Shown here one piece after another: positions 7,603-52,273 of a stretch of DNA of 64,000 nucleotides (the first letter of the stretch is position 1; each line of letters starts with the position of its first letter). The notes under the pieces are model-generated. The model worked only from the letters and a program-made list of their open reading frames with translations, searched no databases and was not told the origin of the DNA. Made by a program: the position numbers and the translations under genes. This DNA comes from Escherichia coli (lineage in GTDB: Bacteria > Pseudomonadota > Gammaproteobacteria > Enterobacterales > Enterobacteriaceae), in NCBI RefSeq assembly GCF_002854065.1, contig NZ_CP024147.1. One strand, given 5' to 3'.

Positions 7603-8772
7603 ATGATGCGCCATTATGTGTGGTTGCTGGGAATGTTATCGCTGTTTTCTTTGACAACGCATGCCAGCGACTGGCAGGAAATTAAAAACGAAGCCAAAGG
7701 GGAAACCGTCTGGTTTAACGCCTGGGGCGGCGACACCGCGATTAATCGCTATCTCGACTGGGTTAGCGGTGAGATGAAAACGCATTACGATATAAACCTG
7801 AAGATTGTTCGTCTGGCGGATGCCGCAGACGCGGTGAAGCGCATTCAGACCGAAGCTGCTGCCGGACGTAAAACGGGCGGCTCGGTGGATCTGCTCTGGG
7901 TGAACGGCGAAAACTTCCGCACCTTAAAAGAGGCCAAGTTATTACAAACGGGCTGGGCGGAGACTCTGCCCAACTGGCGCTATGTCGACACACAGCTGCC
8001 GGTGCAGGAAGATTTTTCAGTGCCTACAGAAGGGGCTGAATCGCCCTGGGGGGGCGCACAACTGACATTTATCGCCCGCCGCGATGTTACGCCACAGCCA
8101 CCACAAACGCCGCAAGCCTTACTGGAGTTTGCTAAAGCCAATCCCGGCACGGTTACCTATCCGCGCCCACCGGACTTTACCGGCACGGCGTTTCTTGAAC
8201 AGTTGCTGATTATGCTGACGCCCGATCCCGCCGCATTAAAAGAAGCGCCGGACGATGCAACTTTCGCCCGTGTCACTGCTCCCTTGTGGCAATATCTTGA
8301 TGCGCTGCATCCGTATTTGTGGCGCGAAGGAAAGGATTTCCCGCCTTCGCCCGCGCGGATGGATGCTCTGCTGAAAGCCGGAACATTGCGCCTGTCGCTG
8401 ACCTTTAACCCCGCGCATGCGCAGCAAAAAATCGCCAGCGGCGATTTGCCTGCAAGCAGTTACAGTTTTGGCTTTCGTGAGGGGATGATTGGCAACGTGC
8501 ATTTCGTCACCATTCCTGCCAACGCGAATGCCAGTGCTGCGGCGAAGGTAGTTGCCAATTTCTTGCTCTCACCCGATGCGCAATTGCGTAAAGCAGATCC
8601 CGCTGTCTGGGGCGATCCTTCTGTTCTCGATCCGCAAAAACTGCCTGATGGGCAGCGCGAAACATTGCAATCAAGAATGCCGCAAGATCTGCCGCCGGTA
8701 CTGGCTGAACCGCACGCAGGTTGGGTAAATGCGCTGGAACAAGAATGGCTACACCGTTACGGTACGCATTAA
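7603..8772 (+). CDS. ynjB: ABC transporter periplasmic substrate-binding protein (389 aa)
   Basis: ORF track 7603..8772; AAGGAG RBS; N-terminal signal peptide MMRHYVWLLGMLSLFSLTTHA. Confidence 0.8.
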   Translation: MMRHYVWLLGMLSLFSLTTHASDWQEIKNEAKGETVWFNAWGGDTAINRYLDWVSGEMKTHYDINLKIVRLADAADAVKRIQTEAAAGRKTGGSVDLLWVNGENFRTLKEAKLLQTGWAETLPNWRYVDTQLPVQEDFSVPTEGAESPWGGAQLTFIARRDVTPQPPQTPQALLEFAKANPGTVTYPRPPDFTGTAFLEQLLIMLTPDPAALKEAPDDATFARVTAPLWQYLDALHPYLWREGKDFPPSPARMDALLKAGTLRLSLTFNPAHAQQKIASGDLPASSYSFGFREGMIGNVHFVTIPANANASAAAKVVANFLLSPDAQLRKADPAVWGDPSVLDPQKLPDGQRETLQSRMPQDLPPVLAEPHAGWVNALEQEWLHRYGTH

Positions 8773-13903: not shown

Positions 13904-15247
13904 ATGGATCAGACATATTCTCTGGAGTCATTCCTCAACCATGTCCAAAAGCGCGACCCGAATCAAACCGAGTTCGCGCAAGCCGTTCGTGAAGTAATGA
14001 CCACACTCTGGCCTTTTCTTGAACAAAATCCAAAATATCGCCAGATGTCATTACTGGAGCGTCTGGTTGAACCGGAGCGCGTGATCCAGTTTCGCGTGGT
14101 ATGGGTTGATGATCGCAATCAGGTACAGGTCAACCGTGCATGGCGTGTGCAGTTCAGCTCTGCCATCGGCCCGTACAAAGGCGGTATGCGCTTCCATCCG
14201 TCAGTTAACCTCTCCATTCTCAAATTCCTCGGCTTCGAGCAAACCTTTAAAAATGCCCTGACTACCCTGCCGATGGGCGGTGGTAAAGGCGGCAGCGATT
14301 TCGATCCGAAAGGAAAAAGCGAAGGTGAAGTGATGCGTTTTTGCCAGGCGCTGATGACTGAACTGTATCGCCACCTGGGCGCGGATACCGACGTTCCGGC
14401 AGGTGATATCGGGGTTGGTGGTCGTGAAGTCGGCTTTATGGCGGGGATGATGAAAAAGCTCTCCAACAATACCGCCTGCGTCTTCACCGGTAAGGGCCTT
14501 TCATTTGGCGGTAGTCTTATTCGCCCGGAAGCTACCGGCTACGGTCTGGTTTATTTCACAGAAGCAATGCTAAAACGCCACGGTATGGGTTTTGAAGGGA
14601 TGCGCGTTTCCGTTTCTGGCTCCGGCAACGTCGCCCAGTACGCTATCGAAAAAGCGATGGAATTTGGTGCTCGTGTGATCACTGCGTCAGACTCCAGCGG
14701 CACTGTAGTTGATGAAAGCGGATTCACGAAAGAGAAACTGGCACGTCTTATCGAAATCAAAGCCAGCCGCGATGGTCGAGTGGCAGATTACGCCAAAGAA
14801 TTTGGTCTGGTCTATCTCGAAGGCCAACAGCCGTGGTCTGTACCGGTTGATATCGCCCTGCCTTGCGCTACCCAGAACGAACTGGATGTTGACGCCGCGC
14901 ATCAGCTTATCGCCAATGGCGTTAAAGCCGTCGCCGAAGGGGCAAATATGCCGACCACCATCGAAGCGACTGAACTGTTCCAGCAGGCAGGCGTACTGTT
15001 TGCACCGGGTAAAGCGGCTAATGCTGGCGGTGTAGCAACGTCAGGCCTGGAAATGGCACAAAACGCTGCGCGCCTGGGCTGGAAAGCCGAGAAAGTTGAC
15101 GCACGTTTGCATCACATCATGCTGGATATCCACCATGCCTGTGTTGAGCATGGTGGTGAAGGTGAGCAAACAAACTACGTGCAGGGCGCGAACATTGCCG
15201 GTTTTGTGAAGGTTGCCGATGCGATGCTGGCGCAGGGTGTGATTTAA
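13904..15247 (+). CDS. gdhA: NADP-specific glutamate dehydrogenase (447 aa)
   Basis: MDQTYSLESFLNHVQKRDPNQTEFAQAVREV...; GGGKGG motif; full-length match. Confidence 0.95.
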   Translation: MDQTYSLESFLNHVQKRDPNQTEFAQAVREVMTTLWPFLEQNPKYRQMSLLERLVEPERVIQFRVVWVDDRNQVQVNRAWRVQFSSAIGPYKGGMRFHPSVNLSILKFLGFEQTFKNALTTLPMGGGKGGSDFDPKGKSEGEVMRFCQALMTELYRHLGADTDVPAGDIGVGGREVGFMAGMMKKLSNNTACVFTGKGLSFGGSLIRPEATGYGLVYFTEAMLKRHGMGFEGMRVSVSGSGNVAQYAIEKAMEFGARVITASDSSGTVVDESGFTKEKLARLIEIKASRDGRVADYAKEFGLVYLEGQQPWSVPVDIALPCATQNELDVDAAHQLIANGVKAVAEGANMPTTIEATELFQQAGVLFAPGKAANAGGVATSGLEMAQNAARLGWKAEKVDARLHHIMLDIHHACVEHGGEGEQTNYVQGANIAGFVKVADAMLAQGVI

Positions 15248-15249
15248 GT

Positions 15250-15352
15250 TGTAAATGCCTGATGGCGCTACGCTTATCAGGCCTACAAATGGGCACAATT
15301 CATTGCAGTTACGCTCTAATGTAGGCCGGGCAAGCGCAGCGCCCCCGGCAAA
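15250..15352. repeat. REP/BIME-type palindromic repeats downstream of gdhA
   Basis: GCCTGATGGCGCTACGCTTATCAGGCCTACA followed by inverted TGTAGGCCGGGCAAGCGCAGCGCCCCCGGCA; typical REP pair. Confidence 0.6.
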
Positions 15353-15363
15353 ATTTCAGGCGT

Positions 15364-16402
15364 TTATGAGTATTTAACGGATGATGCTCCCCAGGGAACA
15401 TTTCTTATGGGCCAACGGCATTTCTTACTGTAGTGCTCCCAAAACTGCTTGTCGTAACGATAACACGCTTCAAGTTCAGCATCCGTTAACTTTCTGCGAT
15501 AGCAGCAGATATGCCAGTAAAGAAATCCCATTAGACTATTTTTTTGATAATCTTCTTCGCTTTCGAACAACTCGTGCGCCTTTCGAGAAGCAAGCATTAT
15601 ATAATGCCAGGCCAGTTCTTCTTCAATTGTCCCGTTTTGAAAAGCTGTGCTTGATATCGAGATCATCCATGATAATTCCGCCGCCCATATTAGCTTCGCC
15701 GAGGATTTACCGGAGCTATGATTAGCGCAATCAGAGATATAGTCTGAGGGAAAACAGCAAATTTATTCAACAAGGCGATAACCTGCTCTGGGGCTTCCTC
15801 CATGTTTGCTTTAAAGGTATTGGCTCCATGGTCGCCAGAAAGAAAATGCTCCATTAAGGCACAATAACTTTCGCTATCTTCGATACCCCATTGATCCTCT
15901 AAAGACTCGCGTCTTTTACTTATGATATCGATCGAGTCAAAAGGAAGCACATGATATTGGAAGGTATCTTTGCCAGGTTCAGGCTTTCGCGGCCAGAACT
16001 CCAGCGTTTCAGACCATTGCTTATGATAGAATCGATAAGGTGCGATCAATTGTAGCGCCTGTAATTTCTCGATACTGAGCGGCTCAATACCTTTAGCCTG
16101 ATAATAATGCAGCTGTTCTTTTTTTGCTTTAAAACCGGCCCGAACAATAAGCCCCATCATAATTAATAGATAAAGAAAAGAGCATCCCGCGGTAATCAGG
16201 CCTCTTTCATTCAAACCTTTGGATGTTATCGCTGCGAATACAAACATTACAGCGACAACACATGTTAAATACCCCCCCACTTACAAAGCAGCATGGCCTT
16301 ATTTTCTTTAATCATCCGTTCAAAATTACTATTAAATATTTCCCAGCCATTAAAAGAATACTTCTCGCTCCCAGGATGGTTTTGTAATAAAACTTTTTTC
16401 AT
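15364..16402 (-). pseudogene. ynjI: ynjI-like inner membrane protein gene split across three reading frames (apparent pseudogene)
   Basis: Three abutting ORFs in three frames (16402..16265, 16280..15690, 15666..15364); span from MKKVLLQNHPGSEKY start to final stop is 1039 nt, two short of a 346-codon frame; first break at a C7 homopolymer (16272-16278). Confidence 0.55.
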
Positions 16403-16529
16403 CACATTCCCTGTTATTACATACTTTAGAGGCGATAATTTTATCCATGCAAAAAAAATATCCAACGAATTTTCTTGATCCGCTGGATATTTCAGAATAT
16501 GACTCGAATAGCACGAAAGATTCGCTCGC

Positions 16530-18491
16530 TTACGCTATCGCCCCGCTTCCGGCTTCATCTGCTGGCGGACTTTTTTTCGCACTACGTTTACGCGGTGTAG
16601 CCTTTTTCTTATCAGCACTGCCACCACTGCCCGGAGCCACAATGCCGCGAAACTGCCGCACCGGAGTACGTTTGGCTTGATCAATAAGCTGATATAGCGT
16701 CCCCACCAGCGGCTGCATAAAGTCCTGATAGCGACACTGCTTTTCGCTGATTTGCGTCAGCACCGATTCCCAGTGCGCGGTCATGTCCGGTCGCGTAGCC
16801 ATTTCTGGCAGCGAATGGAATAGCGCTTTTCCGGCGTCGGTGGAGTGGATATAGCGCCCTTTTTTGGTGAGGAAACCACGCTTGAACAACAGTTCAATAA
16901 TCCCGGCACGCGTTGCTTCTGTCCCCAGACCATCGGTCGCACGAAGGATCTTTTTCAGATCTTTGTCCTGCACAAAGCGCGCGATCCCGGTCATCGCCGA
17001 AAGCAGTGTTGCATCGGTAAAATGGCGAGGCGGCTGGGTTTGCCGCTCTACCACTTCACCTTTTTCACACAGCAACTCATCGCCTTTCGCCACCACAGGC
17101 AATGGCGTACCGTCGTTTTCTTCATCGCGCTCTTTGCTGCCTAACAGCGTGCGCCAGCCTGCTTCAGCAAGAAAACGGGCTTTAGCGACAAATTTGCCTT
17201 TGGCAATGTCCAGTTCGATAACACACTTGCGGAACACCGCATCCGGGCAGAACTGCATCAGATACTGACGGGCAATCAGGTTATAGACCTTCGCTTCGTT
17301 CTCCGTCAGGTTGATCGCAGAACTCCGTGCGGTCGGAATGATGGCGTGGTGCGCATCGACCTTTTTGTCATCCCAACAGCGGTTGCGTATATCTGGATCT
17401 ACCACTGGCTGCGGCAACAGATCCGGTGCATGAACGCTGATGGCATTCATCACCGCGTGGCGTCCGGCAAAATGTTCTTCTGGCAAATAGCGACAATCGG
17501 AACGCGGATAAGTGATTAGCTTGTGTGTTTCGTACAGCTTCTGGCAGATATCAAGCACGTTCTGCGCACTCAGACCAAAACGTTTTGCCGCTTCAATCTG
17601 CAACGTCGAAAGCGAAAAAGGCAGCGGCGCGGATTCTGATTCCCGTTTATCGTTATAGCTGGTGACAATAGCCGGTTGACCACTAATGCGGTTAACCACA
17701 TGCTCCGCCAGTGGACGATGTAACAAGCGCCCTTCTTCATCCTGGTACGGTTCACACGCTTCGCTCGGTTGCCAGATAGCGGTAAACCGCTCATCGGCAG
17801 GTGTCACGATATGTGCTTTGACTTCAAAGAAGTCTTTCGCCACGAAGTTTTCAATCTCTTCATCGCGGCGCACCACCAGCCCAAGCACGGGCGTCTGCAC
17901 GCGTCCCACGGAAAGCACGCCCTGATAACCGGCATTGCGACCGAGAATGGTATACGCACGGGTCATATTGATGCCGTACAGCCAGTCGGCACGCGCTCGC
18001 GCCAGCGCAGAAACGCACAGCGGTACAAACTCACTGTTGGAACGAAGACGGTCGATCGCCCGCTCAACCGCCTGCGGGTTCAGGTCGCTTATCAAGCAAC
18101 GCTGCACCTGCTGGCGCTTTTCCGGTGCCAGTTGTAGATAGTCCAGCACTTCATCCACCAGCAGTTGCCCTTCGCGATCCGGGTCCCCGGCGTGAACGAT
18201 TTCGCTGGCTTCATGCAGGTACCGTTTGATGACGTTAAGTTGTTTGGTCACGGAGGGTCGGGGCTGTAATTGCCACTTTTCCGGGACAATCGGCAAATCC
18301 GCAAGATTCCAGCGCGCATAGCGGCTGTCGTAGGCGTCTGGCTGCGCCTGCTCAAGCAGGTGACCGATACACCAGGTCACCACCTGACCATTACCGCACT
18401 CGATAAAGCCATCGCCTTTACGGTGCGGTTTGGGCAGGACATCAGCAATGGCGCGCGCCAGACTCGGTTTTTCGGCAATAAACAACCGCAT
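16530..18491 (-). CDS. topB: DNA topoisomerase III (653 aa)
   Basis: ORF 16530..18548; start at [19 protein letters not shown]; 4 nt downstream of selD stop (selD-topB operon). Confidence 0.9.
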
Positions 18492-18495
18492 TGAA

Positions 18496-19539
18496 TTAAC
18501 GGATCTCAACCATGGCACGACCGCCGCGCGCTGGCACCAGTTCGCCAATCGCCGTCAGTTCAATGCCAAACTCGGCGGCTGTAGCTTTAACCTCATTTTC
18601 TGCTTCCGGCATGACCGCCAGCAGCAAACCGCCAGAAGTTTGCGGATCGCACAGCAAATCGCGCACTTCACGCGGCATTTCACCCATCAGATGACCGTAG
18701 CTGGCAAAGTTACGTTCGGTGCCGCCAGGCACTGCACCCAACTTAATGTACTCTTCAACCCCCGGCAATTTCGGGATCGCGTCATAGTCAACGCGCGCCT
18801 GCACACCTGCGCCCTGACACATTTCGCTCAAATGCCCCAGCAGGCCAAAGCCCGTTACGTCGGTCATCGCTTTTACGCCTTCAATGTTGGCAAAGGACGC
18901 GCCTGCGATGTTCATCCGGCACATCACTTCCGTCGCCAGTCCCTGATGTTCTGGTTTCAGCAGTGATTTTTTCTCAGCCGTGGTAAGAACGCCGATCCCC
19001 AGCGGTTTCGTCAGGAACAGTTTACATCCGGCTTGTGCGGTACTGTTTTTCTTCACCCGCTCGGTCGGTACGATCCCCGTCACCGCCAAACCAAAAATCG
19101 GCTCCGGCGCATCGATGGAGTGACCGCCAGCCAGCGCAATACCCGCCTGACGACATGCATAGCGTCCACCTTCAGTCACTTCGCGGGCAATTTCCGGGGA
19201 AAGTTTGTTAATCGGCCAGCCGAGGATCGCAATCGCCATAATCGGTTTGCCCCCCATCGCGAAGATATCGCTGATGGCGTTAGTCGCCGCAATGCGGCCA
19301 AAATCGAAAGGATTATCAACGATCGGCATAAAGAAGTCGGTGGTACTGATAACGCTGGTGCCATTGCCCAGATCGTACACCGCCGCATCGTCGCGGGTTT
19401 CATTACCCACAAGCAAATTCGGATCAACAAACTTCGCCTGCTCACTGTGCAGGATGGTTTCCAACACTTTTGGGGAAATTTTACAGCCGCAACCAGCTCC
19501 GTGGCTGTATTGGGTCAAACGAATCGAGTTCTCGCTCAT
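18496..19539 (-). CDS. selD: selenide, water dikinase (selenophosphate synthetase), 347 aa
   Basis: [23 protein letters not shown]... (Cys at the catalytic position). Confidence 0.9.
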
Positions 19540-22237: not shown

Positions 22238-23050
22238 GTGGTCGATATGCTGTCGGCCACACTCCTGAATCGGACTGTCTTTCACTCCCTCTCTCCACTA
22301 CATTCCCTTGCTCATTTAGCATCTGATATGGAGTCATCAGTGAACAAGGCCCCCTCTTTAATTGCCGCTATCGTCCTCGGACTGGGGATTAGCGCCTGTG
22401 GTTATTTTGTTGGTGATGGTGTTAAACATTTAAAAACCAACAACCGTTATGTGAATGTGCGCGGGCTTTCTGAAAAAGAAGTTCGCGCAGATACGGCAGA
22501 ATTAACAATTGCGATTAACTTTAAGGGTAATGTTCCCGGCGAACTGTTCCCGAAACTGGAAGACGCGCAGAAAAAAATTGTTGCCGAACTCAATGCTCAG
22601 GGGATTAACGAGAAAGAGATAATCCTGGGCCAATGGACAAGCAAGCGAACTGATTCCTTCTATCTGAAAGATGATCCCACAATGCCACGCTATAACGCAG
22701 ACGGGTCAGTGACGATAAAAACCCATAATGTTGCTGCTGTCGAAAAAGTCGTCGCGAAATTAAACGAACTGCAAGTCGCTACGGATGGCGCTATCGCTGA
22801 GAGCAAAGTCGCCTATCGCTTTAATGGTATTGGCGCACTGCGCGCTGAGATGATTGCTGCCGCCACCAAAGATGCACGCAACGCCGCACTACAATTTGCA
22901 ACGGACTCAGGTAGCCAGGTGGGGTCAATTAGCGATGCCTCACAAGGCGTATTCCAGATCTTTGCCAGTGGCAGTGATGAAGATGATCCTACGGCGATTA
23001 ATAAAACGGTACGCGTAGTCACGACCGTAACCTATGCGTTGCAGGATTAA
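22238..23050 (+). CDS. putative lipoprotein with SIMPL/DUF541-like sequence pattern (270 aa from GTG; more likely 240 aa from ATG at 22328)
   Basis: Uninterrupted ORF with E. coli-like codon usage; internal start MESSVNKAPSLIAAIVLGLGISA|CG carries signal peptide plus lipobox; C-terminal AxxxAxxxA...G..G.I pattern resembles the SIMPL fold (YggE, BP26). No gene at this position in the K-12 order as I recall it. Confidence 0.55.
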   Translation: MVDMLSATLLNRTVFHSLSPLHSLAHLASDMESSVNKAPSLIAAIVLGLGISACGYFVGDGVKHLKTNNRYVNVRGLSEKEVRADTAELTIAINFKGNVPGELFPKLEDAQKKIVAELNAQGINEKEIILGQWTSKRTDSFYLKDDPTMPRYNADGSVTIKTHNVAAVEKVVAKLNELQVATDGAIAESKVAYRFNGIGALRAEMIAAATKDARNAALQFATDSGSQVGSISDASQGVFQIFASGSDEDDPTAINKTVRVVTTVTYALQD

Positions 23051-23058
23051 CCACTTTT

Positions 23059-46677: not shown

Positions 46678-47124
46678 ATGTTTGATGTCACTTTGCTGAT
46701 CCTGCTCGGGTTAGCTGCGCTGGGCTTTATCAGTCATAACACCACTGTCGCCGTTTCAATTCTGGTGTTGATTATTGTCCGCGTCACACCGTTAAGCACC
46801 TTTTTCCCGTGGATTGAAAAACAGGGGCTAAGTATCGGGATAATCATTCTGACGATTGGCGTTATGGCCCCCATCGCCAGCGGGACGCTACCGCCCTCAA
46901 CCCTGATTCACTCGTTTCTGAACTGGAAATCGCTGGTGGCAATTGCAGTAGGCGTTATTGTCTCCTGGCTGGGGGGGCGCGGCGTGACGTTAATGGGCAG
47001 CCAGCCGCAACTGGTCGCCGGGCTGCTGGTGGGCACTGTTTTAGGCGTGGCGCTGTTTCGCGGCGTACCGGTTGGCCCGCTTATTGCCGCGGGTCTGGTT
47101 TCGCTGATTGTGGGGAAGCAGTAG
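46678..47124 (+). CDS. yeaL: UPF0756-family inner membrane protein (148 aa)
   Basis: ORF track; four hydrophobic helices. Confidence 0.8.
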
Positions 47125-51913: not shown

Positions 51914-52273
51914 TCATTTCCCGTTATGAATGACTTTCCGTTGTTGCGCACCTTCCATCAGGACTTCAGGAGCCACGAAGAAGTCAATGTTGAAATAAGT
52001 ATCGTCAGTCATGGCTTCAATGTTGTGCCACTTTTCTGGAGGGAACACCGCAAACTGCCCCGCTTCGATAAGGATCACCTGATCAGGCTCTGCACTGTGT
52101 TCATCAGCGTAGCCGAGATATTTGACCGCCCCATGCATAACGGAAAGGCGTGGGTAAACCCCCGGGCGCGTTCCTTTATCAAGATGACGTTCGAATATTC
52201 CGGCAGGCGCAGTTTGTTTATTCCAGAAAGGCGTTGAGCGCGTATGAATATAATTCTGTGGGATTTGCAGCAT
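51914..52273 (-). CDS. yeaR: DUF1971 protein (119 aa)
   Basis: ORF track 51914..52273. Confidence 0.8.
   Translation of the reverse strand: MLQIPQNYIHTRSTPFWNKQTAPAGIFERHLDKGTRPGVYPRLSVMHGAVKYLGYADEHSAEPDQVILIEAGQFAVFPPEKWHNIEAMTDDTYFNIDFFVAPEVLMEGAQQRKVIHNGK

Follow-up and report, generated by a model that had tools for sequence, protein, structure and literature searches.

The ynjI gene in the analysed window, a stretch of 64,000 nucleotides of Escherichia coli DNA, carries two 1-nt deletions that spread its coding sequence over three reading frames. We consider it probable (roughly 85%) that the gene is genuinely and irreversibly inactivated by these two 1-base slippage deletions, that one of them arose in a derived, slippage-prone tract, and that the gene is dispensable. 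The double-deletion ynjI is an ordinary pseudogene and a case of ordinary gene decay. A known gene has here been put out of frame via the well-known slippage of mononucleotide runs, and sister genomes already carry the label for it; the only mildly new element is the derived poly-G tract, which is hypervariable across the species.

The minus-strand stretch between gdhA (13904-15247, plus strand) and topB (16530-18548, minus strand) was identified as ynjI, which lies there in K-12 as well: the gene is convergent with gdhA in a gdhA-ynjI-topB order that is syntenic with K-12. From the ATG of MKKVLLQNHPGSEKY at 16402-16400 (minus strand) to the end of the final stop at 15364 the pseudogene (15364-16402, minus strand) spans 1039 nt. 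Intact ynjI measures 1041 nt (346 codons and a stop) in both K-12 (b1762, NP_416276.4) and O157:H7, so that the window copy is two nucleotides short of a 346-codon gene, as the original prediction had calculated. The gene belongs to the DUF1266 family and encodes a predicted inner-membrane protein; K-12 YnjI matches Pfam PF06889 (DUF1266) with residues 167-338 over the full profile (positions 1-175, E=1.8e-25, 90.6 bits). The intact K-12 gene resembles the window copy in its orthologous position and in nucleotide identity (>99%), and differs from it in having the ancestral, stable G5T4 tract (Phe44), T5 and a single 346-codon frame.

K-12 ynjI is a gene of unknown function, and our literature search on ynjI and DUF1266 found nothing on protein function, regulation aside. 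In K-12, BglJ-RcsB acts as an activator of the ynjI promoter and H-NS/StpA as moderate repressors, and ynjI expression is moderately increased in an hns stpA mutant (PMC3950696). The upstream intergenic region toward topB (16403-16529, minus strand) includes, by sequence comparison, the stretch in which the K-12 ynjI promoter has been defined; it is undamaged and matches K-12 at 126 of 127 nt. On the other side of the gene, the gdhA-ynjI intergenic region (15255-15360) resembles, by eye, palindromic units of REP/BIME type (GCCTGATGGCGCTACGCTTATCAGGCCTAC... and TAGGCCGGGCAAGCGCAGCGCCCCCGGCA). Units of this type are ordinary in E. coli intergenic regions.

Alignment of the window with intact and related ynjI genes gave exactly two 1-nt deletions and no further frame-breaking change, in agreement with the two independent 1-bp deletions proposed from the length of the gene. 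One break had been placed at a run of seven C, which was found exactly at 16272-16278. The second had been placed between 15693 and 15762 and was located at the plus-strand A4 of 15751-15754, so that both deletions sit in homopolymers, a point absent from the original prediction. In frameshift 1 (16272-16278, minus strand; codons 42-44) the coding strand reads G7 followed by T, as compared to G8T in in-frame relatives and G5T4 in K-12, O157 and the outgroups, the last two tracts both being 9 nt long. Frameshift 2 (15751-15754, minus strand) lies at about codon 217, within the DUF1266 domain, and has a coding-strand T4 in place of the T5 present in every intact ynjI.

The three minus-strand ORFs in three different frames were confirmed at their coordinates (16265-16402, 15690-16280 and 15364-15666), the start coordinates modulo 3 being 1, 2 and 0. 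Fragment 1 (16265-16402, minus strand) contains codons 1-45 in the native frame and ends at a TAA created by frameshift 1, the first stop being codon 46; Pfam gave no match for it. Fragment 2 (15690-16280, minus strand), in the second frame, corresponds to YnjI residues ~42-217 followed by an out-of-frame tail to the stop at 15690. It covers the hydrophobic segment and the beginning of DUF1266, and it matched profile positions 1-47 only, with 26.9 bits, just under the 27-bit cut-off. Fragment 3 (15364-15750, minus strand) is in the third frame and corresponds to YnjI residues ~218-346, the C-terminal part of DUF1266 (profile positions 90-175, 52.6 bits, E=8.5e-14); the program-listed ORF of 15364-15666 begins at an internal ATG within it. 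With the domain split between fragments, the window copy would not be expected to give a functional YnjI product. A restart at GTG 16280, inside the G-run, with an N-truncated product was set aside: by eye there is no Shine-Dalgarno-like sequence upstream, and fragment 2 in any case runs into the T4 frameshift.

When the G tract was reset in silico to 9 nt, the stop at codon 238 persisted in the window and in two near-identical strains, CUWW06 and 100416, and 346 codons were regained in AHM8C212RI, ECCRA-119, GZ2408C and STEC435. T4 alone thus stops the frame at codon 238, and the gene is dead at any length of the G-run.

Whether the gene is a pseudogene or the sequence carries homopolymer errors had been left open in the original prediction, which suggested to look for the frameshifts in other isolates. 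CUWW06 (wastewater, Thailand) and 100416 (human stool, Gambia) are the only strains with 100.0% identity over 24 kb among the matches listed. Over the 64,000 nt, 10 SNPs and 1 indel separate CUWW06 from the window, and this sole indel is the ynjI run, with C7 in the window and C8 in CUWW06. From 100416 the window is separated by 18 SNPs, by an IS insertion at each of two sites and by a single indel, which lies in yeaV; the ynjI of 100416 has G7 and T4 like the window and no 1-nt indel relative to it, but an IS1 is inserted. The exact T4 context, searched with a 38-nt query counting exact matches, occurred in two of 3475 complete E. coli genomes, namely CUWW06 and 100416. T4 is accordingly a true clone-specific mutation, since an artefact would not follow clonal descent. 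The G7 call, being common to 100416, is probably real too, and the pseudogene is the favoured reading. The tree of window, CUWW06 and 100416 is unrooted and contains three strains, and it is compatible with G7 having arisen once or twice, or with a reversion in CUWW06.

In RefSeq, ynjI is labelled 'frameshifted' in CUWW06 (ACNHKQ_RS12785) and in 100416 (ACU5SM_RS10810/10820), and PGAP marks it as the sole pseudogene in the corresponding 65-kb region of CUWW06. These annotated pseudogenes represent the same gene at the same locus with the same T4 deletion, and in 100416 also the same G7; they differ from the window in the IS1 of 100416, which the window does not have, and in the additional G of the CUWW06 run. 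An identical three-frame layout in a reference ynjI had been named in advance as speaking against the interpretation. It was found only in such clonal relatives, where the gene is marked as a pseudogene, and the interpretation was not refuted.

That one or both deletions are homopolymer miscalls, so that ynjI would really be intact or broken once, is very improbable. Such an artefact would agree with the location of both lesions in homopolymers, with the C/G run being the sole indel relative to CUWW06, as expected from a miscall of the single hardest site, with the wide variation of tract length among public assemblies, and with the presence of another T-run indel, in yeaV, in 100416. T4 is nevertheless found in three independent sequences and in no others among the 3475 genomes, and a recurrent artefact would not track kinship. 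The window contains 23 homopolymers of at least 7 nt, and the 22 besides the ynjI run, among them four A/T runs of 8 and two G7 runs, are equal in length to those of CUWW06, which speaks against miscalling. Control G7 runs were constant in length in 60 sampled genomes, and given tract lengths recur among related strains, e.g. two O169:H41 genomes that both have G10T. With one indel in 64 kb relative to CUWW06 and agreement of the other long runs, we rejected the idea of an assembly with homopolymer errors in general.

A narrower version, in which only the G-run is wrong and the true sequence is G8 as in CUWW06 with the gene broken once by T4, carries a small though appreciable probability. The single indel in 64 kb relative to CUWW06 favours it, and long G/C runs are a classic weak spot of sequencing (general knowledge). 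Against this, 100416 with the same T4 marker also has G7, exact G7T occurs in 38 genomes including AHM8C212RI, which is unrelated to the window, and neither of the remaining G7 runs in the window, two in number, deviates from CUWW06 or 100416. As T4 breaks the gene regardless, a miscalled G8 would leave the pseudogene status unchanged. The C7 run by itself is not unusual, since G/C runs of 7 numbered 3 in the window and ~6 were expected from base composition. The occurrence of the sole length difference from CUWW06 over 64,000 nt in the ynjI run is more than chance. We also compared stop-to-stop frames of at least 80 aa between window and CUWW06: all frames matching annotated CUWW06 genes were unchanged save ynjI, and the other differences concerned two unannotated plus-strand ORFs, antisense to ynjF and to ynjI.

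Some further differences were observed among the three strains. At a T-run in yeaV (window 56288) the window and CUWW06 are one T longer than 100416; PGAP marks yeaV as frameshifted in 100416, and the window yeaV is intact. The shorter run may be a true mutation of 100416 or an error in its sequence, and the 100416 assembly may contain some homopolymer errors. In 100416 an IS421 (IS4-family) splits yeaR at window positions 52152-52162, with an 11-nt overlap of GGGTAAACCCC, and yeaR is intact in the window and in CUWW06. In the sppA-ansA gap, at about 22341-23051 (plus strand) of the window, CUWW06 has an annotated 236-aa SIMPL-domain protein (WP_032281004.1). K-12 presumably has no gene between sppA and ansA, and the SIMPL-domain gene may thus belong to the accessory genes that vary between lineages.

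The length of the G-run was surveyed with short spanning queries, counting exact matches, in 5426 complete E. coli genomes. The in-frame G8T was present in 458 genomes, followed by the out-of-frame G9T (180), G10T (93) and G7T (38), and by the in-frame G7TT (23) and G11T (11). G6T, G12T and G15T were seen as single records, and altogether about 1000 genomes have tract lengths between G6 and G15. The in-frame G5T4 of K-12 type, ancestral GGGGGTTTT, is present in about 2500 genomes, a number inferred from the 92.3% identity class, and the derived allele with G8 or longer is found in about a fifth of E. coli genomes. In UMB200201_11 the tract is G9 with no T, in frame, with Tyr45Asp, and the gene is annotated as intact. 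Our literature search for a description of the ynjI poly-G tract found none.

For comparison with this variation we took the further G7 runs that the window has in ynjB (8048-8054) and in yeaL (46971-46977), each in 30 spread-sampled genomes. Both showed substitutions only and no length variants (0 in 30 and 0 in 30), whereas 21 of 40 sampled genomes were not G8T at the ynjI tract. The idea that G7-G8 runs are unstable or mis-assembled everywhere was therefore rejected. These controls speak against assembly error for G7 runs in constrained genes only, and part of the species-wide tract variation could be assembly error in long-read genomes.

Two usable outgroups were obtained from a scan of genome contigs, Escherichia sp. 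MOD1-EC7003 and Pseudocitrobacter vendiensis, both with G5T4 and a collinear gdhA-ynjI-topB order; the long G-run is therefore the derived allele (Phe44 to Gly). The scan also returned two contaminant contigs, NZ_ABFU01000109.1 ('Bacillus coahuilensis') and NZ_VLXZ01000243.1 ('Alkalicoccobacillus porphyridii'), with ynjI fragments 100% identical to K-12 YnjI. By this identity, both of these short Bacillales contigs are almost certainly E. coli contamination.

The alleles G7TT, G8T and G9 suggest a stepwise T-to-G extension at the 3' edge of the run. The ancestral G5TTTT (Phe44) would have given rise to G7TT, G8T and G9 (Gly44) in this way, and from about 8 G on the run would have gained and lost units freely in many lineages. 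In the Kunkel 'dislocation' (transient misalignment) model, a run is extended at the edge of a homopolymer. The ynjI series resembles dislocation mutagenesis in that G5TTTT, G7TT, G8T and G9 differ by T-to-G changes at the 3' border, each of which lengthens the run; direction and mechanism are deduced from the allele states and the two outgroups, and the ES5 allele GGGGAGGTT does not fit a simple series. In ES5 (NZ_CP133871.1) codons 42-45 read TGG GGA GGT TAT, an interrupted run that encodes KWGGY as in the G8T allele, two synonymous changes breaking the run. From its sequence, this allele either derives from the G-run and has been stabilised, or has come from the ancestral TTT codon along a path of its own. 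In the same ES5 record topB is marked as frameshifted.

A hypermutable tract in the 5' coding region is a feature of contingency loci, in which it lies in the promoter or 5' coding region, and the G-run of codons 42-44 with its G6 to G15 range is such a tract. The 5' poly-G could then be a selected ON/OFF switch, with G7 as a reversible OFF state, a reading we regard as unlikely. It draws on the location of the tract near the start of a 346-codon gene, on the difference in length between near-identical strains (G7 in the window and G8 in CUWW06, with 10 SNPs per 64 kb), on the range of lengths in the species and on four strains of OFF length in which the remainder of the gene is intact (AHM8C212RI, ECCRA-119, GZ2408C and STEC435). 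A predicted envelope protein with a promoter under H-NS/StpA and BglJ-RcsB control in K-12 (PMC3950696) would also be in line with it. The poly-G/poly-C contingency loci Neisseria pgtA, M. tuberculosis glpK and Klebsiella rmpA are likewise reported to have a G/C run of at least 7 nt in the 5' part of the coding sequence; close relatives differ in the length of this run, which switches the frame. The window ynjI differs from them in its second, non-reversible lesion and in showing no selection for in-frame lengths, and the likeness does not establish that it belongs with them.

Several observations argue against a switch. T4 kills the window gene in any tract state, so that the OFF state is not reversible here. 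Tract lengths form a smooth distribution with a single peak around G8, and no selection for in-frame lengths was found in it: the in-frame G11T was found in 11 genomes and the out-of-frame G10T in 93. The tract is derived and not conserved, the outgroups and about 2500 genomes having G5T4. Moreover, the G-run allele co-occurs with nonsense mutations and IS1, and the gene is often deleted, as would be expected under neutral decay. Simple sequence repeats (SSRs) in coding sequence are avoided in the species E. coli (PMC3315296), which also weighs against a switch. It is unlikely that the tract is a true SSR contingency switch, of a kind rare in E. coli, by which an envelope protein silenced by H-NS and inducible by Rcs/BglJ is turned on and off, and that the lineage of the window later abandoned it. 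Such a switch keeps a small probability for strains with an otherwise intact ynjI; it is unsupported, and irrelevant to the window.

Programmed recoding, by which ribosomal frameshifting or transcriptional slippage would restore full-length YnjI, is extremely improbable. RNA polymerase is able to slip at homopolymers (general knowledge), and the two shifts are located at such sites, but two separate -1 corrections would be needed. Efficient transcriptional slippage is known from runs of about 9 or more, and T4 is far shorter. The arrangement is also not conserved, with T4 in 2 of the 3475 genomes and a single frame in K-12, O157 and the outgroups, and programmed frameshifting and transcriptional slippage were rejected on the ground that the three-frame layout is not conserved.

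The ynjI gene is absent, with gdhA adjoining topB, in about 1900 of the 5426 genomes (~35%). Among strains with the G-run allele, JX21CE8 and ECNB21-M121 carry Q118* and WP8-S18-CRE-02 has further ynjI damage. In 100416 an IS1B lies inside ynjI at window positions 15521-15528, with the 8-nt AGAAATCC on both sides, and the window is without it; with this IS1B the dead gene has been struck independently for a third time. HY220605 contains an IS621 somewhere in the gdhA-ynjI-topB stretch. Apart from these, 13 genomes had a divergent ynjI region of 60-80% identity, MB53 (H251) showing 83.6% over a 2-kb region; judged by identity, the divergent region may represent an allele class of its own or may have come in by introgression.

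Taken as gene decay, the window copy would have been broken by two independent 1-base deletions through replication slippage, both in mononucleotide runs, with slipped-strand mispairing as the likely mechanism. The change from T5 to T4 at about codon 217 is specific to the clone, having passed by descent to the strain of the window and to CUWW06 and 100416, the closest relatives sequenced; it cuts DUF1266 in two and by itself leaves a truncated product of at most 237 residues. The change from G8 to G7 at codons 42-44 would have arisen in the derived, slippage-prone tract. Since ynjI appears to be dispensable, changes in tract and frame would not have been purged by selection. Absence of the gene, the added lesions and the smooth length spectrum are consistent with a dispensable gene that contains a mutational hotspot and is under relaxed selection, and ynjI may evolve neutrally.

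For the window itself the finding means little: one more decaying accessory gene of unknown function. The T5 to T4 deletion is a clean clonal marker, present in 2 of 3475 public genomes and in the window. At the ynjI G-run E. coli assemblies can be expected to disagree often, and such disagreement should not be read by annotators as poor sequence quality. The series of G5T4, G7TT, G8T and G9, followed by free drift, would be a neat illustration from nature of the way in which coding sequence that was stable can turn into a slippage hotspot under weak selection.
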